Assembly (NCBI GenBank): GCA_963762565.1
Contig: CAVXLD010000005.1
Coordinates: 548,338-612,337, forward strand
Length of the DNA: 64,000 nt
Source of the DNA: an uncultured Verrucomicrobiae bacterium
Lineage (GTDB): Bacteria > Verrucomicrobiota > Verrucomicrobiia > Chthoniobacterales > JAFAMB01
Direction: 5' to 3'
Below, one piece after another: positions 21,446-48,979 of the stretch (its first letter is position 1; every line of letters starts with the position of its first letter). The position numbers and the translations under genes are program-made. A model generated the notes under the pieces. It had not been told where the DNA came from. It saw only the letters and a list, made by a program, of their open reading frames with translations, and did not search any database.

Positions 21446-21900
21446 GCTTTCCCCTTTTTTATTGGTTAGTTATTTGGTCCGGTTAGTTACCTTTTGATGG
21501 TGTGACTCGCGTTGTCGCTGGGTATTGGGTTTTGCCTATTCCGCGCTAGCTCTAAATCGTTCCCAAAAAGGGCGAGCGACCCTTTCGCAACAATCACGCA
21601 CCGGAACCCATGCGGCGCAGGGCCGCATAAGCGCCGCCACCCGCGTAGTTAGCGCCGGTGCATTTGCGCGAGATCCATCAACCGGCCGAAGGTCCGTAAG
21701 TCGGCGTGATAGAGGAGTCATAGTTTCAATAAAGCCACAAGTTTCCAGTGCGGACAGCCCTTCAGCAACGCTTCAGACTTCGGCGCCTATCAATGTGTAG
21801 CAAGACTATCCCGTTCAATTGCTAACAAAGCCGCAAGGCTGCCCAAAACCGATTGACACCGCGATGTCAAGTCACTATCCGTTGTGGGTGGCGGTGTACG

Positions 21901-31216: not shown

Positions 31217-31428
31217 CCCCGGGATATAGCAAATAACAAAGCGCAGGTAGCAGGTAGGTGGCCTTTTCCAACAAGAAGAGAGGGCCGTCGCCGCTGGTCA
31301 GGGTTTGAACCGCCGTTCGTCCCAATCAGCTTGTCGGGCGGTTTTCGTCATGGCAATCTGAGTCGAAGCTTCGCCCCCCCCTTCAACTTGGCGCAGTGAG
31401 CAGCAATCAATAGCCGAGAGACACGATC

Positions 31429-32322: not shown

Positions 32323-32496
32323 CCTGATTTCCGACAAATGAACCGCCGCTTGTCAAGGTTTGAACCGCCGCTCGTCCCAATCACGTTGCAGAGAGCTGTT
32401 CGCCACGATAGCTGTCGCCGAACATTGCCGCTCAAGTTGTTGATGTGAGCGACGATCGATTAATTAACAACCATCAATGAGACCCGAAGCAAGATC

Positions 32497-32862: not shown

Positions 32863-33334
32863 CTGACCGTGCCAGGCGCCCAGGCTGAAGAGTATTTCGA
32901 GAGCGAGGGTCGCGGTTTCCTGCCCTCGGACCACTACCAGCGGCATGCCGGGTGCTCTGGAGTCGATGAACATACCCGGACCGGCTAGTCCGATGGCTTC
33001 CCTCAGAGAGGACTGGCTACCTCGTTCATTGCTCATTCCCTATATGAGGCGGCATAGCAAATAGCAAATTGAGGTTGGCTTCCTCGAACTATTTTCTAAA
33101 CATTTGCCATCGACTTTGCTGTCCTGGATATCTCGCGCACGCTGCAGAAGGACAAGAATCTGCAAGCGTTTTTCCGAAACGGCACGAGATATTCAGGCTA
33201 CATCTGAATCGCCGTTCGTCAGGGTTTGAACCGCCGCTCGTCCCACTCCGGTTGCTGGGCGTTTCTCGCCGCAATAATCTAGCCGCACATCGACACGCAA
33301 TATTGATCATGTGAGCAACAACCATTTAATAAAG

Positions 33335-33812: not shown

Positions 33813-33869
33813 TGACTGTTGGCTAACGACACCAACATGGGGGCGCGAGGTTCGGCTCAGGTTGCCATC

Positions 33870-34079
33870 GTGATTTGCTGCCTCGAGAAGCAGCTCGATT
33901 CGGCCGCATCGGCCACAGCACAGATGGCTTGCCGGGAAATTTGGTCCCGCCGTGGCGTCGCCCACTGCAGCCTGTATTTCCTCTCGAACCTCAGGCGTCC
34001 CACCGCCGAACTGGGCCAGTCTGCCAAGACCGATACCTGCCGGACCTGCACACCACCCGTACATGAACGCTTTCTGGCC
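33870..34079 (-). pseudogene. inverted fragment of a lanM paralog (cyclase WCxG..CCG region)
   Basis: 70 codons, 59 identical to LanM residues encoded at 48563-48772. Confidence 0.88.
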
Positions 34080-34375
34080 TTGCTCGCCGATAAGTGTCAA
34101 TAGGGACATGAAATTAGCCTGCAGACTCATGTCCCCTGTCGGTATGGCCAGTGCGATCACGCGGTGAGTCAGACAGATGCCAGTTTTGCGCTGGCAGAAC
34201 GCCTCAATGCCCACATCTGAGCCGCCGCTTGTCAGGGTTTGGACCGCCGCTCGTCCCAATCAGGTTGCTGGGAGCAGTTCGTCACGGTAGATATGACCGA
34301 ACATTGCCGCCCAAGTTGTTGATGTGAGCGATAATCAATTTATTAACAACCATCAATAAGACCCGAAGCAAGATC

Positions 34376-34729
34376 ATGAGCCAAGAAAAACTCCAGGCCT
34401 TCGCGGAGGCCGTTAGCAAGAGCGAAGAGCTGCAAAAGCGATTCAATTCGATTCAGGTGGAAGCCGCCAGAACGACCGCTGAAAAGCTGGCCAAGTTGTC
34501 TGAGAGCGCCGGCACGCCTTTTACCGCTGAGGAGTACTTGAATTCAGTGGCAGAGTCATCAGAGGAGATGTCCGCGCAACAATTGCATAGCGTGGCCGGT
34601 GGAGTTTGGGAGCCTTCGTTCGGCAACATTTTTACCTCTATCATGAGTGTAGGGTTAGGGTGCGCAATCGCGGCGGCCGGTTCGGCCATAGAGCGGGGAG
34701 GCGTTGATAACTGCCAAATTAAGTTTTAA
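34376..34729 (+). CDS. Nif11-leader precursor 5
   Basis: core VWEPSFGNIFTSIMSVGLGCAIAAAGSAIERGGVDNCQIKF. Confidence 0.92.
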   Translation: MSQEKLQAFAEAVSKSEELQKRFNSIQVEAARTTAEKLAKLSESAGTPFTAEEYLNSVAESSEEMSAQQLHSVAGGVWEPSFGNIFTSIMSVGLGCAIAAAGSAIERGGVDNCQIKF

Positions 34730-34942
34730 AGGACAGCAGGCAGATGCCAGTTTTGCGTTGGCAGGACGCCTCAATGGCTACATCTGAGCTGCCGCTTGTC
34801 AGGGTTTGGACCGCCGCTCGTCCCAATGAGGTTGCCGGGAGCAGTTCGTCACGGTAGATGTGGCCGAACATTGCCGCCCAAGTTGTTGATGTGAGCGATA
34901 GTCAATTTATTAACGACCATCAATAAGACCCGAAGCAAGATC

Positions 34943-35284
34943 ATGAGCCAAGAAAAACTCCAGGCCTTCGCGGAGGCCGTTAGCAAGAGCGAAGAGCTGC
35001 AAAAGCGAGTCGCTTTGATTCAGATGGAAGCGGTCAAATCGACCGCTGAAAAGGTCGCCAAGTTGTCAGAGAGTGCCGGCACGCCTTTTACCGCTGAGGA
35101 GTACTTGAAATCGGTGGCAGAGTCATCAGAGGAGATGTCCACGGGACAATTGCGTAGCGTGGCCGGTGGAGCCTACGAATTTGCGGACTTTGTCAAGACG
35201 CTTGCTATGGAGGGCGGGTGCGTGTTGCAAGCGATTTCGGCCATAGCACGGATTTCCAAAGAAGGCCCCAAACTCCCCTGTTGA
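34943..35284 (+). CDS. Nif11-leader precursor 6
   Basis: core AYEFADFVKTLAMEGGCVLQAISAIARISKEGPKLPC. Confidence 0.92.
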   Translation: MSQEKLQAFAEAVSKSEELQKRVALIQMEAVKSTAEKVAKLSESAGTPFTAEEYLKSVAESSEEMSTGQLRSVAGGAYEFADFVKTLAMEGGCVLQAISAIARISKEGPKLPC

Positions 35285-35360
35285 TACGGCCAGTGCGATC
35301 ACGCGGTGAGTCAGACAGATGCCGGTTTTGCGCTGGCCGAACGCCTCAATGGCCACATCT

Positions 35361-35434
35361 GAACCGCCGCTTGTCAGGGTTTGAACCGCCGCTCGTCCTA
35401 ATCAGGTTGCCTGCGCAGCTAGCCACGGTAATCT
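35361..35434 (+). promoter_or_regulatory. representative LytTR-type promoter: GAACCGCCGCTTGTC-N7-GAACCGCCGCTCGTC, then TTGCCT-16-TAATCT
   Basis: 22-bp period direct repeat (35361, 35383) directly upstream of sigma70-like -35/-10 hexamers. Confidence 0.7.
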
Positions 35435-35496
35435 AGCCCGATTTGGTCGCCCCAAGTGGGCGATGCGAGCAGAGTTAATAGACGAAAGACACCATC

Positions 35497-35856
35497 ATGA
35501 GCAGACAAACCCTTACGGCATTTGCCGAGGCAGTGAGTAAGAGCCAGGAATTACAAAAGCAATTGGCTTCGATTCATCAGGAAATAGCTCAGTCAAGAGC
35601 AGAGAAGCTGGCCGAGCTATCCGAGAGTGCCGGTACCCCGTTTACTGCTGAAGAGTACCTACGGTCAGTTGCGGAGTCGTCAGAGCAGCTTTCCGCGGAA
35701 CAATTGCACACAGTAGCCGGCGGAGTGTGGGAACCGTCGTTTGAGAATGTTTTCACGTCTTTAATCATGCTTGGCGTAGGTTGTGCCGGGGCTGCGATAG
35801 CCTCGGCAGCACAAGGGAACGTGGACAAATGCCAACCTGAAAAATGGCCGACTTAA
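35497..35856 (+). CDS. Nif11-leader precursor 7
   Basis: core VWEPSFENVFTSLIMLGVGCAGAAIASAAQGNVDKCQPEKWPT. Confidence 0.92.
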   Translation: MSRQTLTAFAEAVSKSQELQKQLASIHQEIAQSRAEKLAELSESAGTPFTAEEYLRSVAESSEQLSAEQLHTVAGGVWEPSFENVFTSLIMLGVGCAGAAIASAAQGNVDKCQPEKWPT

Positions 35857-35901
35857 ACAAACTATCAATTAACAACAATTAATAAGACGAGAGACAAGAT
35901 C

Positions 35902-36258
35902 GTGAGCCAAGAAAAACTCCAGGCCTTCGCGGAGGCTGTTAGCAGGAGCGAAGAGCTACAAAAGCGATTCGCTTCGATTCACGCGGAAGCCGCCAAGTCA
36001 ACCGCTGAAAAGCTCGCCAAGTTGTCTGAGAGTGCCGGTACCCCCTTTACTGCTGAAGAGTACCTACGGTCAGTTGCGGAGTCGTCAGAGCAGCTTTCCG
36101 CGGAACAATTGCATACAGTAGCCGGCGGAGTGTGGGAACCGACGGCGGACAATATTGTGCTCTCTACGTTAACCTTTGGCATAGCTTGTTGGGGAGCAGC
36201 GGTGCTCTCGGCACTATCGAAAGGGGACCCTGACAAATGCCAAATTGCGAAGCGCTAG
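35902..36258 (+). CDS. Nif11-leader precursor 8
   Basis: core VWEPTADNIVLSTLTFGIACWGAAVLSALSKGDPDKCQIAKR. Confidence 0.92.
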   Translation: MSQEKLQAFAEAVSRSEELQKRFASIHAEAAKSTAEKLAKLSESAGTPFTAEEYLRSVAESSEQLSAEQLHTVAGGVWEPTADNIVLSTLTFGIACWGAAVLSALSKGDPDKCQIAKR

Positions 36259-36308
36259 ACTTGAACAAACTATCGGTTAAAAACAATTAATAGACGAAAG
36301 ACACCATC

Positions 36309-36683
36309 ATGAGCAAACAGACCTTTACGGCATTTGCCGAGGCAGTGAGTAAGAGCCAGGAATTACAAAAACAATTGGCTTTGATTCAGCAGGAAATAGC
36401 TCAGTCAAGAGCAGAGAAGCTGGCCGAGTTATCCGAGAGTGCCGGTACCCCCTTTACGGCTGAAGAGTACCTACGGTCAGTTGCAGAGTCGTCAGAGCAG
36501 CTTTCCGCGGAACAATTGCATACAGTAGCTGGCGGAGTGTGGGAACCGTCGCCTAAGAATATTGTCGGCTCTATATTCATGCTTGGCATAGGTTGTGGCA
36601 TAGCTGCGGCGATCTCGGCAGGAAAAGGGGACGTCGACCAATGCCAACTTGGATCAGGTCCGATGGGTGGCGCCCCTACTTGA
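36309..36683 (+). CDS. Nif11-leader precursor 9
   Basis: core VWEPSPKNIVGSIFMLGIGCGIAAAISAGKGDVDQCQLGSGPMGGAPT. Confidence 0.92.
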   Translation: MSKQTFTAFAEAVSKSQELQKQLALIQQEIAQSRAEKLAELSESAGTPFTAEEYLRSVAESSEQLSAEQLHTVAGGVWEPSPKNIVGSIFMLGIGCGIAAAISAGKGDVDQCQLGSGPMGGAPT

Positions 36684-36761
36684 TTACAGGGCCGAAGTAA
36701 ATAGCCCCAGACGTGAACAAACTATCAATTAACAACAATTAATAAGACGACAGGCAAGAAC

Positions 36762-36800
36762 ATGAGCCAAGAGAAACTCCAGGCCCTCGCGGAGGCTGCC
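36762..36800 (+). pseudogene. truncated precursor start
   Basis: MSQEKLQALAEAA interrupted by an inverted cassette. Confidence 0.75.
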
Positions 36801-36959
36801 ATTGCGAGAAACGCCCGGCAACCGGATTGGGACGAGCGCCAGCCCAAACCCTGACAAGCAGCGATTTGAAGCTAGCCCTTGAAGAGGTCCGCCAGGGGAG
36901 AGTTGCCACCGCCTTAAATACCGCCCATGCTTCCGCCTGGGCGTTACAGGGTGTCAGCG

Positions 36960-37307
36960 CTAACTAGTTGGGTCACATGAGGGGTCGTTTCCTCCCAGCA
37001 CGGCCGAACCTATCGCAACGGCAAAACAGCCAACAGCGAAAGAGGCAAATGAAATGGCTATCGCCACCCCAATGTTAACGCCACCGGACACATTCCGCAA
37101 TTGGTCCGCTGACAACTCCGGTGAAGACTCTGCCACTGACTGCAAGTACTCCTCGGCAGTAAAGGGTGTACCTGCACGCTCGGACAACTTCGCTATCTGC
37201 TCGGCTGTCGATCTCGCAACTTCCACTTGAACCGAAACCAATCGTTTTTGTAGCTCTTCGCTCTTGCTAACCGCTTCGGCAAAGGCTTGTAGCTTTTCTT
37301 CGTTCAT
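36960..37307 (-). CDS. Nif11-leader precursor 10 (inverted, divergent)
   Basis: core VNIGVAIAISFASFAVGCFAVAIGSAVLGGNDPSCDPTS. Confidence 0.92.
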   Translation of the reverse strand: MNEEKLQAFAEAVSKSEELQKRLVSVQVEVARSTAEQIAKLSERAGTPFTAEEYLQSVAESSPELSADQLRNVSGGVNIGVAIAISFASFAVGCFAVAIGSAVLGGNDPSCDPTS

Positions 37308-37504
37308 AATCGGGTTGTTTATCGTTTGTTCTGATTGTTGCTCACATTACCAACTTTTGGCGGCGATGTGAGGCGAGATTACGATGACGAAAAACGCCTG
37401 GCAATCTGATTGGGACGAGCGGCGGTTGAAACCCTGACAAACGGCGACGCAGATGTAGCCCTTAAAGAGGTCTGCCAGCGGAAAGCTAATATCGCCCAAT
37501 GCTG

Positions 37505-37576
37505 GTTGCGGAGTCGTCAGAGCAGCTTTCCGCGGAACAATTGCATACAGTTGCCGGCGGAGAAGGGAAACCGACG
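37505..37576 (+). pseudogene. leader 3' fragment
   Basis: VAESSEQLSAEQLHTVAGGEGKPT fused to the next cassette. Confidence 0.75.
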
Positions 37577-37754
37577 TACCAGTTTTGCGCTGGCAGAACG
37601 CCTCAATGGCTACATCTAGGCCGCCGCTCGTCAGGGTTTGAACCGCCGCTCGTCCCAATCAGGTTGCCTGCGCAGTTAGCTAGAGTAATCTAGGCCGATT
37701 CTGGTCGCCCCGAGTGGGCGATGCGAGCAGAGTTAATAGGCGAAAGGCACCATC

Positions 37755-38117
37755 ATGAGCAAAAAAACCCTTACGGCATTTGCCGAGGCAGTGAGTAAGA
37801 GCCAGGAATTACAAAAACAATTGGCTTTGATTCAGCCGGAAATAGCTCAGTCAAGAGCAGAGAAGCTGGCCGAGCTATCCGAGAGTGCCGGTACCCCCTT
37901 TACTGCTGAAGAGTACCTACGGTCAGTTGCGGAGTCGTCAGAGCAGCTTTCCGCGGAACAATTGCATACAGTAGCCGGCGGAGTGTGGGAACCGACGGCG
38001 GAGAATATTCTGGCCTCTATATTCTTCATTGGGCTAGGTTGTGCCATGGCTGCGGGACTCTCGGCAGGAAACAAAGGGGACGTGGACAAATGCCAATTTA
38101 CTGGTCGGATGTGGTAA
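37755..38117 (+). CDS. Nif11-leader precursor 11
   Basis: core VWEPTAENILASIFFIGLGCAMAAGLSAGNKGDVDKCQFTGRMW. Confidence 0.92.
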   Translation: MSKKTLTAFAEAVSKSQELQKQLALIQPEIAQSRAEKLAELSESAGTPFTAEEYLRSVAESSEQLSAEQLHTVAGGVWEPTAENILASIFFIGLGCAMAAGLSAGNKGDVDKCQFTGRMW

Positions 38118-38211
38118 CCGCCCTTCGGCTTGATTACAGGGCCGAAGTAAATGGCCCCAGACTTAAACAAACTATCAATTAACAACAATTAATAAGACGA
38201 GAGACAAGATC

Positions 38212-38586
38212 ATGAGCCAAGAAAAATTCCAGGCCTTCGCGGAGGCTGTTAGCAAGAGCGAAGAGCTGCAAAAGCGATTCGCTTCGATTCAGGTGGAAGC
38301 CGCCAAGTCGACCGCCGAAAAGCTCGCCAAGTTGTCCAAGAGCGCCGGTACACCCTTTACGGCTGAGGAGTATCTACGGTCAGTTGCAGAGTCGTCAGAG
38401 CAGCTTTCGGCGGAACAATTGCATACAGTAGCCGGCGGAGTGTGGGAACCGACGGCTGGGAATATTTTGGGCTCTATATTCACCATTGGCATAGGTTGTG
38501 CCGCGGCGGTGGCAGTCTCGGCGGCATTCGAAGGGGACGTGGACAAATGCCAACTTGGAAAAGGGCCCGTGACTACGGGCGGCTAA
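38212..38586 (+). CDS. Nif11-leader precursor 12
   Basis: core VWEPTAGNILGSIFTIGIGCAAAVAVSAAFEGDVDKCQLGKGPVTTGG. Confidence 0.92.
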   Translation: MSQEKFQAFAEAVSKSEELQKRFASIQVEAAKSTAEKLAKLSKSAGTPFTAEEYLRSVAESSEQLSAEQLHTVAGGVWEPTAGNILGSIFTIGIGCAAAVAVSAAFEGDVDKCQLGKGPVTTGG

Positions 38587-38813
38587 TGCAATTCTCGGAT
38601 GTAAGCCTTAGATGTAACCAGTTTTGCGTTGGCAGAACGCCTCAATGGCCACATTAGAGCCGCCGCTTGTCAGGGTTTGGACCGCCGCTCGTCCCAATCA
38701 GGTTGCCGAGAGCTGTTCGCCACGATAGATGTCGCCGAACATCGCCGCCCAAGTTGTTGATGTGAGCGACAATCAATTAACTAACCACCAGCAATAAGAG
38801 TCGAAGCAAGATC

Positions 38814-39170
38814 ATGAGCCAAGAAAAACTACAGGCCTTCGCGGAAGCCGTTAGCAAAAGCGGAGAGTTGCAAAAGCGATTTAATTCGATTCAGATGGAA
38901 GCCGCCAGATCGACCGCCGAAAAGCTAGCCAAGTTGTCCGAGAGTGCCGGGACGCCTTTTACCGCTGAGGAGTACTTGAAATCGGTTGCAGAGTCAGCAG
39001 AGGAGATGTCCACAGAACAATTGCATAGTGTGGCCGGTGGAGTTTGGGAGGCGAATTTTAAAAACATTTTTGACTCAATTATTAGTGCTGGCATCGCGTG
39101 CATAATCCACGCGGCTGTCTCGGCAGGACATCTGGGCGACGTGGATAAGTGTCAACCTTCAAGATCTTGA
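38814..39170 (+). CDS. Nif11-leader precursor 13
   Basis: core VWEANFKNIFDSIISAGIACIIHAAVSAGHLGDVDKCQPSRS. Confidence 0.92.
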   Translation: MSQEKLQAFAEAVSKSGELQKRFNSIQMEAARSTAEKLAKLSESAGTPFTAEEYLKSVAESAEEMSTEQLHSVAGGVWEANFKNIFDSIISAGIACIIHAAVSAGHLGDVDKCQPSRS

Positions 39171-39264
39171 TTCGACTCAGCGCGAAATCGAGATTTTTCG
39201 AACGAGAGAAACCTGTTCCGAGTCTCCAACGTTAACCAACGATTGATAAACGAGGGAGCAACCC

Positions 39265-39482
39265 TCGAGCACAGAAAAACTTCAGGCCTTCGCGGAGGCT
39301 GTTAGCAAGGGCGAAGAGCTACAAAACAATATATTTCGATTCAAGTCGAAATAGCCAGATCGACCGTCGAAAAGCTCGCCGAGTTGTCAGAGAGTTCCGG
39401 TACGCCCTTTTACCGCTCAGGAGTACTTGAATTCAGTGGCAAAGTCATCAGAGGAGGTGTCCACAGAACAATTGCGTAGTGC
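39265..39482 (+). pseudogene. decayed Nif11 leader (no start, indels, core deleted)
   Basis: STEKLQAFAEAVSKGEELQ...STEQLRS joined directly to next cassette. Confidence 0.8.
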
Positions 39483-39664
39483 GACACGGGCACTTTTGCG
39501 CTGGCCGAACGCCTCAATGGCCACATCTGAACCGCCGCTTGTCAGGGTTTGGACCGCCGCTCGTCCCAATCACGTTGCCTGCGCGGTTAGCCACGGTAAT
39601 CTAGCCGTATTTCGTCGCCCCAAGTGGGCGATGCGACAGCAATTAATAGATGAGAGACAAGAAC

Positions 39665-39982
39665 ATGAGCCAAGAAAAACTAAAGGCCTTCGCGGAGGCT
39701 GTTAGCAAGAGCGAAGGGCTGCAAAAGCGATTCGCTTCGATTCAGGTGGAAGCGGCCAAATCGATCGCTGAAAAGCTGGCCAAGTTGTCCGAGAGTGCCG
39801 GTACGCCTTTTACCGCTGACGAGTACTTGCACTCGGTGGCAGAGTCATCAGAGGAAATGTCCGCGCAACAGTTGCAGAGCGTGGCGGGTGGAGTTTTTTT
39901 GGAGCAGTCGCCGGTCGAAAACATCCTGACCTCTACCTTTGAGCAGGTCGCTGGTGATTACCAATTCAAGAGTTGCGGATAG
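39665..39982 (+). CDS. Nif11-leader precursor 14 (short, single-Cys core)
   Basis: core VFLEQSPVENILTSTFEQVAGDYQFKSCG. Confidence 0.85.
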   Translation: MSQEKLKAFAEAVSKSEGLQKRFASIQVEAAKSIAEKLAKLSESAGTPFTADEYLHSVAESSEEMSAQQLQSVAGGVFLEQSPVENILTSTFEQVAGDYQFKSCG

Positions 39983-40133
39983 AATAATCCCTTAACGATG
40001 AGCGAGCCGCAGCAGCCGCACGATGATTTCAACTAGGGTCACGTCTTAACGGGCTGTTGCCGAAATGGATCATTACCCGGCAAGATCACAAAGTTCACAA
40101 AGACGGACTTTTTGAACAGAAGTTCTGTCGACC

Positions 40134-40637
40134 TTACTTTTGTTCCAGAAGCGGCAGTATCTCGGACTCGAAAACCCCCTGGCTCACGGCGCCTAGATGA
40201 GACGTGACGATGTTACCTTTGCGATCGAGGACAAAGGTTACCGGGACGGCGGTGACACCTCCATAATCGGCTGCGGTTTTTTCGTGGCCAAGTACGACCG
40301 GATAATTAATTCCGACCTGCATCACAAATGGCTTCACATCAGACGCTTCAGTCTCCACAGAAATACCTATCACGGTCAATCCTTGGGCAGCATACTTTTT
40401 CTGCAGTGCAATAAATCCTGGGATCTCCACTCGGCACGGCGGGCACCAGAACGCCCAAAAATCTAAAATCACAACTCTCCCTTTAAAGTCGGAAAGCTTC
40501 ACAGTTTTGCCGTCGAGATCATTTAGTTGCCACTCTGGAGCTTGGGTTGTGGCTGCGTTTGCCCGGTATAGCGGGCCCTCGAACAAAAGGATTCCGGCGA
40601 CCGCAACGCCAATAGAGAGATAAAAATTCCTGCTCAT
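40134..40637 (-). CDS. TlpA/ResA family thiol-disulfide redoxin
   Basis: signal peptide, LSDFKGRVVILDFWAFWCPPC, VPVTFVLDRKG. Confidence 0.9.
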   Translation of the reverse strand: MSRNFYLSIGVAVAGILLFEGPLYRANAATTQAPEWQLNDLDGKTVKLSDFKGRVVILDFWAFWCPPCRVEIPGFIALQKKYAAQGLTVIGISVETEASDVKPFVMQVGINYPVVLGHEKTAADYGGVTAVPVTFVLDRKGNIVTSHLGAVSQGVFESEILPLLEQK

Positions 40638-40904
40638 AAACGGATAGCAGTTTTATAGCCTATAGAACCATGCTGCGCACCAATTATTCCCACGACACCC
40701 ACTCTAAAAACCTCGAACAATGAAGGGTCCGTTGATCATTTGTTGTGGAACCCTAGTTTCTTCGCCTTCTTTAAATCACAGGAAGCCGCTTTACCGTCGC
40801 CAAGCACATGATAGGCATAGCCTCGACTGTGGTAAGCTCGGTCCAGGTCCGATTTGAGTCGAACGGCTTCGGTGTAATATCGGCAATGGCCCTTTCGTAC
40901 TGTC

Positions 40905-41774
40905 TCAGAATGAATCGCTCTTGACGGCGAGTCCGATGGGTCCGGGCAGCCCTTTGATGAAGCTGGGGCTAATCGCGGCTCCGGTGGTGGCGTCGTATTT
41001 GCCAACCGTGCCGACGAATTCGTTCGCCACGAAGAGGATGTTGCCCGACACCGCGAATCCTTCGGGTCCGGGCAGCCCTGTGATGAAGTTGGGGCTAATC
41101 GCGGCTCCGGTGGTGGCGTCGTATTCGCCAACCGTGTTGTCTGCGTTCGCCACGAAGAGGATGTTGCCCGACACCGCGAGTCCGACGGGTCCGGGCAGCC
41201 CTTTGATGAAGCTGGGGCTAATCGCGGCTCCGGTGGTGGCGTCGTATTTGCCAACCTTTTTGCCTGCGTTCGCCACGAAGAGGATGTTGCCCGACACCGC
41301 GAGTCCTTCGGGTATGCTCAGCCCTGTGATGAAGTTGGCGTTAATCGCGGCTCCGGTGGTAGCCTCGTATTTGCCAACCGTGTTGCCTGCGTTCGCCACG
41401 AAGAGGATGTTGTCCAACACCGCGAGTCCGATGGGTCCGGGCAGCCCTGTGATGAAGCTGGGGCTAATCGCGGCCCCGGTGGTGGCGTCGTATTTGCCAA
41501 CCTTGTTGCCTGCGTTCGCCACGAAGAGGGTGTTGCCCGACACCACGAGTCCTTGGGGTATGCTCAGCCCGGTGATGAAGCTGGCGTTAATCGCGGCTCC
41601 CGTTTTGGCGTCATATTTGCCCACGACCCCAATGAGTGGGCTTCCAGCAAACCCGGTGACATACAGCTGTGCGCAGGCGTTTCTTGGCATGGCCCAAAGC
41701 GCGGCAGCGGCGATAAGAAATGCGTATAAAGCGCGCAAAAGGGGCCCCCAATTTGAGGTGAGGGTTGTCTTCAT
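40905..41774 (-). CDS. secreted tandem-repeat (beta-propeller-like) protein
   Basis: signal peptide then six 41-aa repeats GKYDATTGAAISPSFITGLPGPxGLAVSGNILFVANAGNTV. Confidence 0.8.
   Translation of the reverse strand: MKTTLTSNWGPLLRALYAFLIAAAALWAMPRNACAQLYVTGFAGSPLIGVVGKYDAKTGAAINASFITGLSIPQGLVVSGNTLFVANAGNKVGKYDATTGAAISPSFITGLPGPIGLAVLDNILFVANAGNTVGKYEATTGAAINANFITGLSIPEGLAVSGNILFVANAGKKVGKYDATTGAAISPSFIKGLPGPVGLAVSGNILFVANADNTVGEYDATTGAAISPNFITGLPGPEGFAVSGNILFVANEFVGTVGKYDATTGAAISPSFIKGLPGPIGLAVKSDSF
40921..41620. repeat. 123-bp coding tandem repeat, six units
   Basis: unit anchors at 40981, 41107, 41230, 41353, 41476, 41599. Confidence 0.9.
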
Positions 41775-42189
41775 GGCTTTGTTCTGTCTTGGTTCAGCGT
41801 GAAAGTGAAAAGTCGGTGCTTGGCCGCCCGGCTGAGCAGATCAATTGTCGAATCGCGTACACATTCAACCAGCGGAGTATTGCCGATGAGCGAGAGAATC
41901 GCCTGGTTTTTTAGGGGAGTTGCTTGGAGGGCGCCGGAACCCATGTAATGAGTTTCCAGCCGGGACACAAGCTGTGTCAAGCAAGATAGTTCAAGGTTCA
42001 AAGTTCGACGTTCCAAGTTCCAGGCTACATTTGAGTCGCCGCTTGTCAGGGTTTGGACCGCCGCTCGTCCCAATCAGGTTGCCGAGAGCTGTTCGCCACG
42101 GTAGATGTCGCCGAACATCGCCGCCCAAGTTGTTGATGTGAGCGACAATCAATTAACTAACCACCATCAGTAAGACTCGAAGCAAGATC

Positions 42190-42549
42190 ATGAGCCAAGA
42201 AAAACTACAGGCCTTCGCGAAAGCCGTTAGCAAGAGCGAAGAGTTGCAAAAGCAATATCTTTCGATTCAAGTCGAAATAGCCAAATCGAGCGCCGAAAAG
42301 CTCGCCAAGTTGTCAGAGAGCGCCGGGACGCCTTTTACCGCTGAGGAGTACTTGAACTCGGTGGCAGAGTCATCAGAGGAGATGTCCACAGAGCAATTGC
42401 ATCGTGTGGCCGGAGGACTTTCCGCAGCGGAAGAAATTTATATTGCGTCGTCTATATTGACTGCGGGCATGACTTGTTGGGTTAAGGCGATCGTGTCGGC
42501 CTCAACTCAGGGTGGCGCCGAAAAATGTGTTGAATTACCCGGACTTTAG
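42190..42549 (+). CDS. Nif11-leader precursor 15
   Basis: core LSAAEEIYIASSILTAGMTCWVKAIVSASTQGGAEKCVELPGL. Confidence 0.92.
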   Translation: MSQEKLQAFAKAVSKSEELQKQYLSIQVEIAKSSAEKLAKLSESAGTPFTAEEYLNSVAESSEEMSTEQLHRVAGGLSAAEEIYIASSILTAGMTCWVKAIVSASTQGGAEKCVELPGL

Positions 42550-42775
42550 CAACTTCAACCCGCTACTCAGGTGTAGTTTTCGAGCAAGTAACAAATGGCA
42601 CTATTCCGGTACTCCAATAATCCGTCACCCTGTTTTTGCGTGATGAGATGGAGGGCGAAACGCCTCATGAAATGGAGGGATTGCCTGCGTGTCTAGGACC
42701 CCAGCTGACTGCCGAAATCCGACGTTGCCCCCTCTCCCCCTTTAGCTATGTCGGACAAGTTTGGAGGACAACCCC

Positions 42776-42871
42776 ATGAGGCGACCTAACTTCCAACAAC
42801 AGAAGACCCATCGCGAGGTTTGCGGCGATGCCAGTTTTGCGTTGGCAAAACGCCTCGATGGCGACATCTGA
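42776..42871 (+). pseudogene. internally deleted mini-NHLP ORF (31 aa)
   Basis: GGAGG RBS; MRRPNFQQQKTHREVCGDASFALAKRLDGDI joins the NHLP N-terminus to its C-terminus. Confidence 0.7.
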
Positions 42872-43023
42872 GTCGCCGCTTGTCAGGGTTTGGACCGCCG
42901 CTCGTCCCAATCAGGTTGCCGGGAGTTTTTCGCGACGGTAATTTCGCTGAACATTGCCGCCCAAGTTGTCGAGATGAACGACAATCAATTAATTAACAAC
43001 AATCAAAGACGAGAAACAAGATC

Positions 43024-43380
43024 ATGAGCACAGAAAAACTCCAAGCCTTCGCGGAAGCTGTTGGCAAGAGCGAAGAGCTGCAAAAGCGCGTGGCTTCGAT
43101 TCAGGCGGAATCCGCCAGAACGACCGCCGAAAAGCTCGCCAAGTTGTCCGAGAGTGCCGGTACGCCTTTTACCGCTGAGGAGTACTTGCACTCGGTGTTA
43201 GAGTCATCGGAGGGGATGTCCGCGCAACAATTGCATAGCGTGGCCGGTGGAGTTTGGGACCCGTCGGCCACGAACATTGTCACCTCTATCTTTTCTGCAG
43301 GCATAGTGTGCGGACTCTTTGCGACCGCTTCAGCCATTGGGAAGGGAGACGCTGATCAGTGCCAAGTTAAGATGGGATAA
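43024..43380 (+). CDS. Nif11-leader precursor 16
   Basis: core VWDPSATNIVTSIFSAGIVCGLFATASAIGKGDADQCQVKMG. Confidence 0.92.
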   Translation: MSTEKLQAFAEAVGKSEELQKRVASIQAESARTTAEKLAKLSESAGTPFTAEEYLHSVLESSEGMSAQQLHSVAGGVWDPSATNIVTSIFSAGIVCGLFATASAIGKGDADQCQVKMG

Positions 43381-43603
43381 GTGCCAAGTTAAGATTTAAG
43401 TAAAGACAGCACTACCCGCGCAGTTAGCAACTTCAACCCGCTACTCGGATGCAATTCGAGCAAGTAACAAATGGCAGTACTCCGGTACTCCAAGAATCCC
43501 TTACTCTGCTTTTGTATGATGAGACGGCGACGAAGCACCTGATGAACTGGAGGGATTGCGTCTCCAGGACCCCAGTTGACTGTCGAAATTGGAGGACAAC
43601 CCC

Positions 43604-43698
43604 ATGAGGCGACCTAACTTCCAACAACAGAAGACCCATCGCGAGGTTTGCGGCGATGCCAGTTTTGCGTTGGCAAACGCCTCGATGGCTACATCTGA
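43604..43698 (+). pseudogene. second mini-NHLP copy (1-nt deletion)
   Basis: near-identical to 42776-42871, one A shorter near 43675. Confidence 0.65.
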
Positions 43699-43853
43699 GT
43701 CGCCGCTTGTCAGGGTTTGGACCGCCGCTCGTCCCAATCAGGTTGCTGAGAGCTGTTTGCCAGGATAGCCGTCGCCGAACATTGCCGCCCAAGTTGTTGA
43801 TGTGAGCGACAATCAATTAACTAACAACCATCAATAAGACCAGAAGCAAGATC

Positions 43854-44225
43854 ATGAGCCAAGAAAAACTGCAGGCCTTCGTAGAAGTCGTTAGCAAGAG
43901 CGAAGAGTTGCAAAAGCGATTCAATTTGATTCAGATGGAAGCGGTCAAATCGACCGCTGAAAAGCTGGCCAAGTTGTCCGAGAGTGCCGGTACGCCTTTT
44001 ACCGCTGAGGAGTACTTGAAGTCGGTGGCAGAGTCATTAGAGGAGATGTCCACGGAACAATTGCGTAGTGTGGCCGGTGGTGAATTCTCTCTCTCTGCTG
44101 ATGAGGGTCTCAAGTTTATGAACTCGATTATAGGTAGTTTCGGTGGTAGCCAATGCGTAGTCACGCTGATTCATTCGCTCGCAGAAAAGGGCAACCCTTT
44201 AGAGTGTATACCAGTTAGAAAGTAA
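43854..44225 (+). CDS. Nif11-leader precursor 17
   Basis: core EFSLSADEGLKFMNSIIGSFGGSQCVVTLIHSLAEKGNPLECIPVRK. Confidence 0.92.
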   Translation: MSQEKLQAFVEVVSKSEELQKRFNLIQMEAVKSTAEKLAKLSESAGTPFTAEEYLKSVAESLEEMSTEQLRSVAGGEFSLSADEGLKFMNSIIGSFGGSQCVVTLIHSLAEKGNPLECIPVRK

Positions 44226-44253
44226 CCTGATAAATAAGACCCGAAGAAGGATC

Positions 44254-44360
44254 ATGAGCCAAGAAAAACTCCAGGCCTTTGCGGAAGCTGTTCGCAAGAG
44301 CGAAGCGTTGCGAAAACGATTCGCTTCGATTCAGTAGGAGGCCGCCGAAAAGCTCGCCAC
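44254..44360 (+). pseudogene. truncated precursor with in-frame stop
   Basis: MSQEKLQAFAEAVRKSEALRKRFASIQ* fused to next cassette. Confidence 0.8.
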
Positions 44361-44527
44361 GGCCACATCTGAACCGCCGCTTGTCAAGGTTTGGACCGCC
44401 GCTCGTCCCAATCAGGTTGCCGAGAGCTGTTCGCCACGATAGATGTCGCCGAACATTGCCCCTCAAGTTGTTGGTGTGAGCGACGATTAATTAAGTAACA
44501 ATCATCAATAAGACCGGAAGCAAGATC

Positions 44528-44884
44528 ATGAGCCAAGAAAAACTACAGGCCTTCGCGGAAGCTGTTAGCAAGAGCGAAGAGCTGCAAAAGCGATTCAATT
44601 CGATTCAGGTGGAAGCGGCCCGAACAACCGCTGAAAAGCTGGCCAAGTTGTCTGAGAGCGCCGGTACGCCTTTTACCGCTGAGGAGTACTTGAATTCGGT
44701 GGCAGAGTCATCAGAGGAGATGTCCGCGCAACAGTTGCATGGCGTGGCCGGTGGAGTTTGGGACCCGTCGTCCCATAACATCTTAGTCTCTATCGGTACT
44801 TTAGGCTTAGGGTGTGCACTCAAGGCGATCATTTCAGCCGCGGAGGGAGACGTTGATAAGTGCCAAATGAAGCGGCCAACTTAA
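44528..44884 (+). CDS. Nif11-leader precursor 18
   Basis: core VWDPSSHNILVSIGTLGLGCALKAIISAAEGDVDKCQMKRPT. Confidence 0.92.
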   Translation: MSQEKLQAFAEAVSKSEELQKRFNSIQVEAARTTAEKLAKLSESAGTPFTAEEYLNSVAESSEEMSAQQLHGVAGGVWDPSSHNILVSIGTLGLGCALKAIISAAEGDVDKCQMKRPT

Positions 44885-44979
44885 GTAAAGGCAGCATTAG
44901 CCGCGTAGCGGACTGCCGAAATCCGACGTCGCCCCATCTCCCCCTTTAGCTATGTCGGACAAGTTTGGAGGACTACCCC

Positions 44980-45285
44980 ATGAGGCAACCTAACTTCCAA
45001 CAAATGACCCGTCGCGAGATCGAAGATTACATGATCGAAAGAAGCTTAGTAGATCCAGAGTTTCGTGCTCGTCTGATCGAAAATCCACGTGAGACGGTAT
45101 CTGGGCTCGGGTTGCCGGTGGGCGCAGACGTCAAGATTCAAGTATTGGTAGAAGAACCCGACTCGTTCTGCATCGTACTGCCGCGAGTCCTGCGGGAGTC
45201 GCATGAACTCCCTGCGGAAGCTTTGAGCGATATAGCCGGTGGCGGCAGCTTTCCTCTGGCAGATCTTTTCAAGGGTTACATCTAA
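44980..45285 (+). CDS. NHLP (nitrile hydratase-like leader) precursor peptide
   Basis: TRREIE..IERSLVDPEFRARLIENPR..IQVLVEE..IVLP..EL..EALSDIAGG; 13-aa core GSFPLADLFKGYI. Confidence 0.9.
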   Translation: MRQPNFQQMTRREIEDYMIERSLVDPEFRARLIENPRETVSGLGLPVGADVKIQVLVEEPDSFCIVLPRVLRESHELPAEALSDIAGGGSFPLADLFKGYI

Positions 45286-45681: not shown

Positions 45682-45765
45682 ATTGCCGACAAGTCCGACC
45701 TCGTTAGCAGCGATTCTGCCTAAACCGAACTTCGTCGCCCAAATGGGCGCTGTGAGCAGCAATCA

Positions 45766-48700
45766 ATGGCAATCGACCTGATGGATGTCTGGACGGAGGC
45801 GTTGTCGCCGGAGCGGGATACTCGTCGCTTGGAGCAACGGCTTCGCTTTCTTGGATGGAGCCACGATGAGGCGCGAAACCGCTTGTCCGACGATTTTTTA
45901 TTCGATGCGCGAAAGGAACCTGCCGCGCTCTCTTTGCTGGAAGGCGGTCTTGCGCGTTTTGAGCGCTCAGGCCCCGCCAAACGGAGGGATAGCGGGCGCG
46001 GGAGACAGAGTTCCGATAAAGTCCTTCCTTTCGAAGAAGTACTCTCCCCGTTCGCGTTCGCTGCCGCCTCAGACCTGATACGAAAAGAGAGACGACGCTG
46101 GCTGAAACTGATGTCGAGACCCGCCCGGCGCGCTTTAGTCAGGAGTTTACTTGAGCGGTTGTGCGAAACCGCCGCTCCGGCACTATCGGCGGCTCTGAGG
46201 CGGCGCCCTCAAGCGCTCTACCTGATGTTACCGGGGGTGCGTCTCCCCCAAAAAAGAACCTTACCTGCGTTTCGTAGACGGATTGCGACAGGGAGGTCTG
46301 CGCACCATGCTTGCTGATTTAACCGTGCTCGGGCGCCTAATTTGCGCACGGATGGAACAATGGCAGGCTGCTACCGCCGAGTTTCTTCTGCGTCTACAGA
46401 ATGACGCTCCGGTGTTGCAAGCGAGTTTTGGTCTCGAGAAAATCTGGAGCGCTCATCTCCAATGTGACCTTGGTGATTCCCATCAGGAGGGAAGGAACGT
46501 GATGGCAATCACCTTTCTTGATGGCAAGCGGCTCGTATATAAACCGCGTTGCGTGCGTATGGGCGAGGCCTGGTTCGAATTGTTGGAATGGCTGAAACGG
46601 GAAGACGCCAGCTTTTCGTTGTCAGCACCGCGAGTGCTGAGTCGCCAGAACTATGGTTGGGTGGAATGGGTTGACCCGGCGACGAATCCAGATGAACGCG
46701 GAGCGGAGCTCTACTACCAACGCGCTGGAGAACTGCTGGCTTTAGCCTGGCTCTTCTCCGCCACGGACCTGCACCAAGAAAATGTTATTGCTACCCAGGA
46801 CGGGCCTGTGATTATCGATCTCGAGACTTTATTTACTCCGGTCGTACGACCGTTTTTTACCAGCCGGCAAGAACTGGAGCTGACCGCGGGAACAAATGAC
46901 GTCGGCGTTGGCATCCTGATGACTTCGCTCTTACCGGTATGGCAGGTGAACGAAGACGGTCGCGCCCGGGACCTCAGCGGGTTCGCCGGCCGGATGCGAG
47001 AGGAAGCATCTTATGCTGAACCAATTTGGGTCGAGCTCGGCACAGACCAGATTCGACTCGAACCAAGGCTCGTGCGAGGTTCGCAACCTCATAATATTCC
47101 GAGAGACGGCGAGGGGCGTCTTGTCCTGCCTTACGATTATAGCGAAGCCATTGTGGAAGGGTTTATTCGCACGACGCGTTTTATGCTTGGGCGCCGGACG
47201 CAGCTCCTGGATCCGAATGGGATCCTGGCTCCGTTTCGGGAAGGGCAAATACGCTACTTGATTCGTGACAGCCAAATCTATGGGGTGATGCTGCACCGGC
47301 TCCTAAAACCAGAATTTCTCGGCAGTTTCGCGGTTCGGGATATCGAGATCGAGAAGTTAGCCCAAGCCTATTTCCCTATAACGGTTGAGGAGCCCCGGCC
47401 CGACGCCTGGAACTGTTATGACGGTGAGCGACACGCACTCACTAAGGGCGATGTTCCGCTCTTTCACGCAAAGACCGACGAGTTCACGTTGCATGGTGAC
47501 GGGGGTATCCAGGTCCACGATTATTTTTGGAGAACGGGCTGGAACGTCGTGCAAACTAGATTGTCCAATCTCGATGAAGCCGCTATCGCCGAGCAAGCCG
47601 GGTTGATCAGAGCGAGCCTTGAGTCGAGCTCAATCCGTCCAGGTATTGCGCGCGATGAAACTTCCGTTGGGCTGATCACCGAGCAGAACCACGACCGAGA
47701 AGGAAGCATCCTCAATCCGCCTCCGGATTCGACCTCAAACCATCTAGTCGAACACGCAACAAACGCCTCCCGTTTGTTCAATGCCGCCGAGCGGATTGCA
47801 GCCGACATCGAGCGCCGCACCGTTCCGCTCCGGCGAGGCGGTGTCACCTGGCTCAGTGTCTCTTTTGACCCACTCTATAAAAGACAAGTCTCAGCGGTGC
47901 TCGGATTGGACCTCTATGGCGGCAACCTCGGAGTCGCTATTTTCTTGGCTGCTCTTGCCTATACCACCGGGGAGCGCCGTTGGGCGGCTCTAGCCGAACA
48001 ATGCACGCGCAAACAACTAGACCAGTTACAAGCGCCCGAGATGCGGGCGGTCATCCAACGCATGCCACTCGGGATCGGAACTGGCGTTGGCTCCCTGATT
48101 GAAGGATGTCGAGTACTTGGGGGACTCCTGGGTGACGAGCGGTATCTACTCAGTGGCGGGTACTTTTCCGACTTCGTTTCTGTCGCTGCCGAAGCGAAAC
48201 AGATGGAATCGGATGTACTTGGCGGCATGGCCGGAGGCATCCTGGCACTCTTAAACCTCCACCGCGCAATATCTGCACCCGAGCTACTGGAAAGAGCGAC
48301 CAATCTTGGCTTGGCGCTTTTGGAAAACCGGGTGCAAGCTTCGACCGGACATGCCGTCTGGTTGAGCAGCTTCGCCGAGCGACCTCTGACTGGATTCGGA
48401 CACGGAGCTGCAGGGATTGCTCTGGCTCTGCATCGGCTCGGACAGGCGACAGGGGAGACCATCTTTTCCGCGGCCGCGGAGGAAGCGATCGGTTATGAGC
48501 GGGCGGTATTTGATCCGAAGGCAGTTAATTGGCCGGATTTTCGTCGCGGTGCATTCAAGCCCGGCCAGAAGTCGTTCATGTATGGGTGGTGTACGGGGCC
48601 GGCGGGTATCGGTCTTGCCAGACTGGCCCAATTTGGTGGAGCGACCCCTGAGGTCAGTGAGGAAATACAGGCTGCCATCGCCGACGCTACGTCGGGACCA

Positions 48701-48979
48701 ATTTTCCCGGCAGGTCATCTGTGTTGTGGCCGATGCGGACGGATAGAACTGCTTCTCGAGGCGGCCAATCGTCTCACCGACAATACACTGCGAGATGCAG
48801 CGGTCTCCCAGGCGATACTGCTCGAATCGCAGGCTCAGGAATCAGGATTTTATGCGCTAAACGGAGCCGATCGCGGCCGGCTGTTTGCGCCTTCTTTTTT
48901 TCAGGGCACTTCCGGCATAGGCTATACATTTCTCCGGATACTGAACCCTCAATTACCTTCCGTTCTATCGTTAGGCTAG
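45766..48979 (+). CDS. lanM: class II lanthipeptide synthetase LanM, CCG (ProcM-like) type; one frameshift near 46250
   Basis: dehydratase GDSH, LVYKPR, TDLHQENVIA, IDLETLF; cyclase DLYGG, GFGHGAAG, WCTG, LCCG, FFQGTSGIGY; about 1070 codons when joined. Confidence 0.95.

Follow-up and report, generated by a model that had tools for sequence, protein, structure and literature searches.

Probable relic of an NHLP-leader peptide gene in the putative LytTR-type promoter cassettes of a verrucomicrobial lanthipeptide locus

Gene content of the locus and its promoter cassettes

The stretch of DNA analyzed here is 64,000 nucleotides (64 kb) long and comes from an uncultured Verrucomicrobiae bacterium of the Chthoniobacterales (GenBank assembly GCA_963762565.1, contig CAVXLD010000005.1, positions 548,338 to 612,337 of the forward strand). 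It is called the window below, and positions are counted from its first nucleotide. The window holds one large locus for ribosomally synthesized and posttranslationally modified peptides (RiPPs), of the prochlorosin-like class II lanthipeptide type, in which Nif11-leader precursor genes lie behind repeated promoter cassettes. The subject of this report is the first ~45 bp of those cassettes, here called the head, which probably descends from the 3' end of a gene for an NHLP-leader peptide that was copied together with the promoter.

An intact NHLP-leader peptide gene lies at 44980..45285 on the plus strand. Its product scores 57.1 bits against NCBIfam TIGR03793 (cutoff, 50.9) and weakly against Pfam NHase_alpha (23.4 bits, below the cutoff of 27.2), and it has a double-glycine cleavage site (..IAGG) before the core GSFPLADLFKGYI. 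A large protein collection contained 27 homologues with a conserved core, ten of them 82-95% identical and from metagenome sources. The core is short, contains no Cys and one Ser, and is conserved down to 46% overall identity with Phe97, Gly99, and Tyr100 nearly invariant, unlike the cores of lanthipeptides. No modifying enzyme is constantly linked to the gene across 11 related loci, which were found by scanning one genome per species and all belong to Verrucomicrobiota metagenome-assembled genomes (Chthoniobacterales, Terrimicrobiaceae, and similar groups); these loci (L001 to L011) are distant, with 46-63% NHLP identity, the close relatives at 82-95% being known as metagenome proteins only.

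A LytTR-family regulator with an atypical receiver domain is encoded at 21853..22695 on the plus strand; it reaches 50.9 bits against Pfam LytTR and 24.6 bits, below the cutoff, against Response_reg, and the acidic pair of the receiver has been lost. Export genes on the same strand (22701..30662) encode an HlyD-type adaptor, an ABC transporter with a C39 peptidase, a second ABC transporter, and an outer membrane efflux protein (Pfam HlyD_3; Peptidase_C39, ABC_membrane, and ABC_tran; ABC_tran; OEP), the C39 exporter at 23741-25993 being in the same neighborhood as the NHLP gene. The stretch 31429-45681 contains, besides several fragments, 18 intact precursor genes with Nif11 leaders, of which the plus strand carries 17 and the minus strand 1. 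Their leaders are conserved and end in GG, their cores are hypervariable and rich in Cys, Ser, and Thr, and they are accompanied by a single class II synthetase. All six array proteins submitted to Pfam, out of the 18 intact precursors, matched Nif11 (PF07862) at 24.6-33.3 bits (cutoff, 23.8), and the single precursor submitted to NCBIfam TIGR03798 reached 26.6 bits, below the cutoff of 32.3. The synthetase, LanM (45766..48979, plus strand; Pfam DUF4135, 324.9 bits, and LANC_like, 143.2 bits), is read in two frames: residues 24-108 of its homologue in L001 match 45787-46065 (open reading frame 45766-46317), and residues 132-980 match 46262-48973 (open reading frame 46283-48979). Either a frameshift or a sequence error may account for this split in the only synthetase of the locus. 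A fragment of the LanM C terminus lies antisense at 33864..34115 on the minus strand (tblastn, 52% to residues 832-915 of the L001 LanM), with 33872-34079 being 84% identical in nucleotides to 48563-48770.

A profile search of the window found 15 promoter cassettes, 2 of them on the minus strand, and two partial 3' pieces. Each cassette is ~200 bp long and comprises an operator, a -10-like box, and a leader RNA of ~60-100 nt. A 33-nt intergenic pattern occurs 14 times at no more than 3 mismatches and not at all in 100 shuffles, and the operator consists of direct half-sites, CCGYTYGTC, repeated with a period of 22 bp; a strict scan for such pairs gave 14 in the window and none in shuffled sequence. 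A -10-like box (TAGATG or TAATCT) was seen by eye ~30 nt past the second half-site, both here and in the NHLP promoters of the relatives. The cassettes have two types of 5' untranslated region (UTR), A and B, which are paired with two types of leader. A cassette 3' UTR fragment is also found in front of the LanM frame (45719..45763, plus strand; nhmmer, E 8e-5).

An earlier reading made from the sequence alone (the sequence-only reading) had named these elements LytTR promoters, and the label seems reasonable, a LytTR regulator being encoded in the window. The published AlgR consensus CCGTTCGTC is identical to the cassette half-site (PMC4787818), and the spacing of the cassette equals that of AgrA sites, which another paper describes as imperfect 9-bp repeats with a 12- to 13-bp spacer upstream of the -35 region (PMC5600425). 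The cassette may thus be regarded as a promoter of the LytTR/AlgR type, presumably bound by the regulator of the cluster and presumably placed at the -10-like box. A scan of 34100-39700 for the sigma-70 consensus found one site, outside the cassettes, against 3.1 expected; this is uninformative for activator-dependent promoters, in which the absence of that consensus is expected. No Rfam match at E<=1 was found in 30000-47000.

The cassette head and the 3' end of the NHLP gene

Ten of the 15 cassettes carry, 1 to 3 bp from the first half-site, a segment of 39-80 bp that is colinear with the 3' end of the NHLP gene and its stop codon. When the 60 nt that precede the first operator repeat were compared with the NHLP gene by Smith-Waterman, ten cassettes aligned to nucleotides ~245-307 of the gene, in which the stop codon occupies nucleotides 304-306. 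The resemblance to the NHLP tail had been proposed in the sequence-only reading, and it stood up to shuffled controls: only 0 to 3 of 1,000 shuffles reached the score in these ten, and in a second alignment set-up none of 500 shuffles was as good for any of them. Every significant head alignment ended at or beside the NHLP stop codon. The 42-nt head quoted in that reading is a consensus and not a verbatim copy; its nearest copy, at 34746, has 1 mismatch and six more have 3-5. The nearest 42-mer in the window that lies outside a cassette is the end of the NHLP gene (45244, 12 mismatches), the best background 42-mer having 19.

Eight plus-strand cassettes have heads of one kind, referred to as class 1. 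They are c34222 (34178..34335), whose head reads SFALAERLNAHI and a stop and abuts the antisense LanM fragment; c34789 (34745..34902), with SFALAGRLNGYI and a stop; c35364 (35320..35476), which has a type B UTR; c37621 (37577..37734), also of type B, in which the head is fused to a fragment of a Nif11 leader and core; c38660 (38617..38773), which has lost the stop; c39532 (39490..39644), which combines a type B UTR with a type A leader; c42873 (42829..42985); and c43700 (43657..43813). Seven class-1 heads are in frame, reading SFALAERLNGYI and a stop or variants of it, and are identical to the NHLP tail (AGC to TAA) at 25-29 of 39 nt. In an nhmmer search with a profile of these eight plus-strand cassettes, the NHLP end was the best noncassette match, at marginal E values of 0.047 for the whole cassette and 0.43 for the head alone.

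The two minus-strand cassettes carry tails that are closer to the NHLP gene, and these were found as the sequence-only reading had described them. Cassette c37447- (37334..37502, minus strand; nhmmer), which drives the Nif11 gene at 37307-36960, is preceded by the tail ALGDI-SFPLADLFKGYI, in which the stop codon has become Cys; the tail lies in the open reading frame 37347-37658 on the minus strand, where it reads ...ALGDISFPLADLFKGYI. Over 37 nt, blastn-short gives 86% identity between its head and the NHLP tail (E 0.001), and the head-only class-1 profile matches the same head, at 37450-37485, with E 0.0021. Cassette c36860- (36796..36955, minus strand; nhmmer) is degenerate and lies behind ~80 nt of NHLP 3' end, which reads GGGNSPLADLFKG and a stop at 36872-36913; its Smith-Waterman score against NHLP nucleotides 226-299 is 30, the shuffle maximum being 15. 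Over its 12 sense codons the c37447- tail differs from the intact NHLP gene in 5, all synonymously, and over 14 codons the c36860- tail shows 7 synonymous, 2 nonsynonymous, and 1 nonsense difference. Since 22-25% of random single changes in the tail codons would be synonymous, the excess of synonymous differences has P = 5e-4 for c37447- (5 of 5) and P = 3e-3 for c36860- (7 of 10). Differences that are nearly all synonymous argue that the minus-strand tails diverged from the intact gene while under purifying selection and that they come from NHLP paralogues that long remained functional. No fewer than two additional functional NHLP genes would then once have stood immediately upstream of an operator-Nif11 block.

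Chance, or convergence on GC-rich sequence, would offer another explanation for the likeness between head and NHLP tail, and the direct similarity of the class-1 heads is modest enough, in both identity and nhmmer E value, to raise it. We consider this explanation highly improbable. Hardly any shuffles reach the observed scores, the significant alignments all end at the stop codon, the two minus-strand intermediates occupy the same position, the head is physically linked to the NHLP 5' end in the mini-open reading frames described below, and no 42-mer outside the cassettes in the 64 kb is nearer to the head than the NHLP tail.

The direction of descent appears to be from the NHLP gene to the head, because the core motif [FL][FL]xGYx is kept in homologues from genomes that lack such cassettes. 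The class-1 heads have replaced the nearly invariant Phe of the NHLP family core, and their nonsynonymous codon differences from the NHLP gene exceed the synonymous ones.

The remaining five cassettes lack most of the head. Cassette c31288 (31287..31407) has operator and promoter and no NHLP tail; it matches only positions 45-158 of the nhmmer profile (E 1e-19) and precedes the Nif11 gene at 31429-31794. Only the last ~13 nt of the head are clearly kept in c33209 (33196..33320; profile positions 33-156) and ~13 nt in c42036 (42023..42149), and in c44374 (44357..44487) a head of ~13-17 nt is fused to a truncated Nif11 leader. Upstream of these four, the alignment with the NHLP gene is at shuffle level (138-445 of 1,000), and the profile alignment retains at most ~13-17 nt of head. 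Cassette c32343 (32330..32456; nhmmer) keeps at most ~15 nt of head, and the 21 nt upstream of it resemble NHLP nucleotides 8-28 (Smith-Waterman to the NHLP 5' end, 1 of 1,000 shuffles). Cassette c44374 is likely the promoter of an operon composed of a Nif11 gene (44528), the NHLP gene, a second Nif11 gene (45340), and LanM.

Two other derivations, one for the head and one for the region upstream of the NHLP gene, were examined and rejected. A relic of the 3' end of the LytTR gene would have been a plausible source of the head, as the operator follows that gene in the relatives; the alignments were at shuffle level (59-491 of 500 shuffles as good). The region upstream of the NHLP gene was considered as a decayed cassette, and here the 94-nt region was equaled by 167-182 of 500 shuffles and the longer 42550-42775 by 20 of 500, with neither cassette profile giving a match at E<=10.

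Copying, trimming, and conservation of the tail

Two short reading frames link the 5' end of the NHLP gene to the head. The sequence-only reading had described them as fusions of the NHLP ribosome-binding site and N terminus to the tail, and this is borne out, as the ATGs at 42776 and 43604 share the GGAGG-containing lead of the NHLP ATG at 44980. Positions 44911-45003, which cover the NHLP upstream region, ribosome-binding site, and first codons, recur at 42707-42799 with 96% identity, and 44965-45003 recur at 43589-43627 with 95% identity. A three-way alignment shows that in both cases an internal deletion joins NHLP codon ~14 to a class-1 tail. In mini-open reading frame 1 (mini-ORF 1; 42776..42871, plus strand) the ribosome-binding site and first ~14 codons are in frame with the tail; in mini-ORF 2 (43604..43699, plus strand) a 1-nt deletion in the tail shifts the frame, which argues that the mini-ORFs are internally deleted NHLP copies now decaying as pseudogenes. 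We think it very improbable that small genes are truly encoded by these 36-residue mini-ORFs or by the ATG-initiated 37-residue frames that span head and operator. In favor of such genes, mini-ORF 1 keeps its frame behind a GGAGG ribosome-binding site, and from that site to the operator the two tandem units are ~99% identical. Against them, mini-ORF 2 has a shifted frame, the mini-ORFs have lost the double-glycine site and most of the leader, another residue stands where the core has its nearly invariant Phe, and in c35364 the 37-residue frame is truncated.

Further scars are scattered through the array. An inverted copy of the NHLP codons for GYI and the stop, with 18 nt of NHLP downstream sequence, lies at 38590..38619 on the minus strand and abuts the head of c38660 (blastn-short, 90% over 30 nt to 45274-45303). 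By eye, this inverted copy and the head's own end form an inverted repeat of ~12 bp. The head at 34177 abuts the antisense LanM fragment, and the final ~45 nt of the fragment accompanied the next cassette when it was copied and now lie at 35274-35322; the ~45 nt upstream of the heads of c34222 and c35364, which we had considered as additional NHLP sequence, are accounted for by the end of this fragment, 35274-35322 being a 94% copy. Between the Nif11 gene at 34376-34729 and the head of c34789, the spacer opens with ~11 nt that match the beginning of the NHLP-upstream spacer, and the head follows directly; the match is short and is consistent with a separate deletion. The LanM, inverted NHLP, and mini-ORF scars imply that the array has been reshaped by duplications, deletions, and inversions.

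Long self-matches in the array begin at the head. Positions 35322-36247 match 37579-38557 at 85% over 982 bp, a block that comprises a cassette and two precursor genes, and 42546-43250 match 43424-44080 at 81% over 708 bp, a block that comprises the NHLP upstream region, mini-ORF, cassette, and leader. Distances among heads with their operators correlate with those among UTRs (Mantel r 0.56, p 0.007) and leaders (r 0.45, p 0.024), and it follows that head, promoter, and precursor travel together. The eight class-1 heads are 85-100% alike (mean, 0.895) and 64-74% identical to the NHLP gene, and they share the derived codons GCG, GAA, CGC, CTC, and AAT where the NHLP gene has CCT, GAT, CTT, TTC, and AAG. 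Because of these shared codons and this mutual identity, the eight plus-strand heads seem to be one degenerate clade, amplified with the promoter from a single tail that had already eroded.

The sequence-only reading had the array growing by tandem duplication of units composed of NHLP gene, LytTR promoter, and Nif11 precursor, with the NHLP part eroding to a ~45-bp tail. The first half of this proposal holds, in that the tail appears to be an NHLP relic and the minus-strand tails and mini-ORF units point to NHLP genes that once preceded operator, promoter, and Nif11 gene. The second half needs to be amended, since the derived substitutions common to the class-1 heads speak for one amplified tail and not for eight separate erosions. 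Taken literally, the proposal would mean that each cassette once had a complete NHLP gene and that each of these eroded separately. Differing left ends would favor this (~80 nt in c36860-, 55 nt in c37447-, and N terminus plus tail in the mini-ORFs), as would the spacer remnant at c34789, the NHLP 5' remnant at c32343, and the at least three NHLP lineages visible besides the intact gene. We nevertheless regard it as unlikely, because the class-1 heads share derived codons and are much more alike than any is like the NHLP gene and because the long repeat blocks start at the head and not within the NHLP gene.

The reading that we favor, and consider probable, is that the head is a pseudogenized NHLP tail lying at the operator, that units were copied and their NHLP copies then deleted, and that the tail has hitchhiked with the promoter. 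In this lineage an NHLP gene would first have come to lie directly in front of an operator-Nif11 block, although the order of events can only be proposed. Unequal recombination may then have copied blocks of NHLP gene, operator and promoter, and one to three Nif11 genes, giving at least three further NHLP copies, two of which would have been under purifying selection for a long time. The surplus NHLP copies may have been removed by deletions and inversions with differing left ends, and one degenerate tail of ~45 bp, that of class 1, may have been carried with the promoter through most of the later duplications.

Several observations weigh against this reading. The head is more conserved than the rest of the same units, with a mean identity of 0.895 against 0.813 for the leader, 0.757 for the promoter spacer, and 0.738 for the UTR; between types A and B the head keeps 0.885, the leader 0.763, the spacer 0.705, and the UTR 0.628. 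Three new junctions lie no more than 2 nt from a single position in the head. Neither the conservation of the head nor the clustering of junctions is predicted by a purely neutral relic. The direct likeness of the majority heads to the NHLP gene is limited to the 25-29 nt and the marginal nhmmer values given above, and their homology would rest partly on the intermediates c37447- and c36860- and on their common place beside the operator. No cassette follows the intact NHLP gene, which is separated from the next Nif11 gene by a spacer of 54 bp. In the mini-ORF units the N terminus is 95-96% like that of the intact NHLP gene and the tail 64% (25 of 39 nt), so that these units are mosaics and the order of events in them is uncertain. 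If the contig is a metagenome assembly, some junctions among repeats that are 70-93% identical could be chimeric. Lastly, the NHLP-promoter-precursor order that the sequence-only reading expected in related clusters did not appear: none of the 11 related loci has an NHLP gene, an operator, and a Nif11 gene in this succession. Its absence from such distant relatives does not, in our view, overturn the evidence within the window, and it shows the junction of NHLP gene and operator to have apparently arisen in this lineage.

The conservation of the head raises the question of whether the tail is kept because it functions. It could affect the LytTR promoter, or the 3' end of the transcript arriving from upstream, in the role of an additional promoter element, a site bound by a protein, or a small RNA hairpin. 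In favor of this are the excess conservation just described, the three independent-looking junctions at one head position, and the tandem pair c42873 and c43700, in which head and operator differ by 1% and the flanks by 16-17%. The sequence-only reading had suggested a regulatory role for the hairpin GCCAG-N7-YTGGC, which did not find support, since the hairpin is part of the predicted fold in 2 of 8 heads and the fold z-scores range from -0.0 to -2.4. An alternative 7-bp hairpin, GUUUUGC-N4-GCAGAAC, which would speak for a functional tail, is predicted in 4 of 8 heads. However, 5-94 of 200 shuffles fold as well, and neither hairpin is present in the NHLP tail or in the minus-strand heads. Against a function there also stand the five cassettes without most of the head, all of which precede intact Nif11 genes, and c37447-, which has a different head sequence and still precedes one. 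A third operator half-site in phase inside the head was sought by eye and rejected (<=5 of 12 matches), Rfam gave no match, and no head-like element was found in the Nif11 and NHLP promoters of the relatives. A functional tail therefore seems to us a distinctly poor prospect, less probable even than separate erosion of each copy.

The head appears to be dispensable for gene integrity, because the five head-poor cassettes precede intact precursors, and the tail itself is most likely nonfunctional. It may have been kept because it touches the operator, a complete deletion being liable to damage the first half-site. Gene conversion seeded at the conserved operator would probably homogenize the adjacent tail, although we offer this as an explanation only.

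Other features of the window stand apart from the history of the cassettes. By eye, each Nif11 gene start, whether or not it follows a cassette, has the same A-rich stretch of ~45 nt (..CAATTAACAACAATTAATAAGAC..; e.g., 35857-35901 and 36259-36308) and no GGAGG; the NHLP gene, unlike the Nif11 genes, has a clear GGAGG, and the two kinds of gene may use different translation initiation signals. At 40000-42000 the array is interrupted by two minus-strand genes (40134-41774), one for a thioredoxin-like AhpC/TSA protein and one for a secreted protein with NHL/beta-propeller repeats; the latter gene contains internal tandem repeats of ~120 bp. Reading frames of the phage integrase family lie just upstream of the LytTR regulator (19483-20791, minus strand), and toxin-antitoxin-like genes of the AbiEii/DUF6088 kind lie at 17407-18728; the locus may be at the edge of a genomic island.

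Related loci, a possible peptide signal, and comparison with known systems

A profile search of 1.8 billion representative sequences returned 3112 NHLP-type proteins, only 4 of them at E <= 1e-30. Of 9 NHLP-type sequences retrieved, [FL][FL]xGYx forms the C terminus of the 4 closest and is absent from that of the other 5. A LytTR gene directly precedes the NHLP gene in 10 of the 11 related loci, and in 9 of the 11 a strict 22-bp operator pair is located 50-75 bp upstream of the NHLP start; L006 and L011 have degenerate versions, as judged by eye. Loci L003, L004, and L005 contain the adaptor, the C39 exporter, the ABC protein, the LytTR gene, and the NHLP gene, with no LanM or Nif11 gene within the flanks, and in L001, L002, L010, and L011 the opposite strand carries Nif11 genes and LanM. 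Upstream of the Nif11 genes of L001, L002, and L011, direct repeat-like pairs followed by CCCAATC..TTGG were seen by eye, as in the cassettes of the window. The sequence 3' of the NHLP gene in the relatives is an efflux gene, a tRNA, or, in L003, a second operator pair before a protein of ~1,000 residues. This conserved protein (~950-1080 residues; 54-61% identity between species) is encoded at L003 10425-13652, L004 8-2923, L005 1244-4159, and L009 5772-8747 (minus strand). It follows an operator pair in L003 and L005 and accompanies the LytTR-NHLP module in loci without LanM; it had no match in Pfam, NCBIfam, or the sequences of the PDB and no usable match in the Atlas, and it is absent from the window. 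In only one related locus, L009, a radical-SAM/SPASM protein (10316-11581, minus strand) adjoins the NHLP gene.

The gene order in the relatives and the conserved, Cys-free core suggest that the NHLP product is an exported peptide under LytTR control and possibly a signal. In the window the NHLP gene has no operator of its own and would be transcribed behind cassette c44374; in the relatives (9 of 11 loci) the double-glycine peptide gene does have its own operator. We hypothesize, tentatively and with more doubt than confidence, that the 12- to 13-residue NHLP core (...[FL][FL]xGYx-COOH) is a signal, released at GG by the C39 exporter, that feeds back on the atypical LytTR regulator controlling both its own gene and the array. 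In support of such a circuit, 10 of 11 loci have the LytTR and NHLP genes side by side and 9 of 11 have an operator in between, L003-L005 combine the module with exporters and lack LanM and Nif11 genes, and the core is conserved. Six of the NHLP-linked regulators were aligned, and in their receivers the acceptor Asp has become Glu in L003, L004, L008, and L009, while the acidic pair is lost in the window (21898-22692) and in L001; such atypical receivers suggest control without phosphorylation. No histidine kinase adjoins the LytTR regulator at 21853-22695 in the window, and among five loci scanned with Pfam a protein with MASE1 and His_kinase domains lies nearby in L008 and L009 only. With atypical receivers and no constant kinase, a classical kinase-driven pheromone loop is therefore not established, and both features count against the signal. 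It also counts against it that the ~1,000-residue protein of four loci could instead be a maturase or the true product.

If the tail is the relic that we suppose, it is a readable record of how an array of RiPP precursors expanded, in which a promoter and its upstream gene were copied and the surplus was trimmed to the edge of a transcription factor site, and the locus may be a helpful model of how prochlorosin-like libraries grow in bacteria other than cyanobacteria. The module of LytTR gene, AlgR-like operator, and NHLP gene, conserved in bacteria of the Chthoniobacterales type, is perhaps the more interesting by-product. It offers a regulator, a candidate binding site, and a candidate peptide for the control of lanthipeptide production, and such regulation is undescribed for the phylum in the literature searched. 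Were the signal reading true, diderm Verrucomicrobiota would possess an autoinduction circuit based on a double-glycine peptide, and in this genome the signal gene and the responsive promoter would have been amplified together, the tails being the footprints of that event.

The closest known counterpart of the array is found in the marine picocyanobacteria, whose prochlorosin arrays combine many ProcA precursors with Nif11 leaders and one LanM of the ProcM type. Both systems have a Nif11 leader ending in GG, hypervariable cores rich in Cys, Ser, and Thr, and one class II synthetase. The prochlorosin arrays are cyanobacterial, whereas here the relatives are Verrucomicrobiota and the precursors lie behind repeated LytTR-type operator cassettes that carry the apparent NHLP relic. 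Most copies of this relic appear to have been amplified rather than formed anew. Haft, Basu, and Mitchell inferred in 2010 paralogous duplication and intragenic recombination among the NHLP and Nif11 families (PMC2887384). The peptides described here resemble the families of that study in their matches to the leader models and in the nearby ABC exporter with a C39 peptidase, and differ in the short, Cys-free NHLP core with its conserved [FL][FL]xGYx in place of a variable, modified one; the words "regulator" and "pheromone" do not occur in the text of that paper (PMC2887384). In the literature searched we found no work that joins NHLP and LytTR, and lanthipeptide, LytTR, precursor, and promoter occurred together only in unrelated work.

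Bacteriocin regulons under LytTR regulators are known from ComE, BlpR, and PlnC/D. As in the present locus, a regulator of the LytTR family is clustered there with a C39 exporter and a gene for a double-glycine peptide; the pheromone modules of the ComCDE, BlpRH, and Pln kind also have a cognate membrane histidine kinase and a canonical receiver, neither of which was found beside or in the regulator of the window. At the level of the promoter, the published accounts of AgrA at P2 and P3 (PMC5600425) and of AlgR (PMC4787818) agree with the cassettes in having two imperfect 9-bp repeats with a 13-bp spacer, a promoter without a -35 consensus, and, for AlgR, an identical half-site. The present system differs from such LytTR-regulated promoters in that no HPK10-type kinase lies beside the regulator in the window, the receiver is atypical, the host is diderm, and the operator has been amplified 15 times. 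Gene relics at duplication junctions are known from tandem gene arrays generally, and the cassettes conform to this pattern in that a truncated neighbor lies at the border of the duplicated block and its left end varies. They depart from it in that the relic touches a transcription factor site and exceeds the downstream coding leader in conservation.

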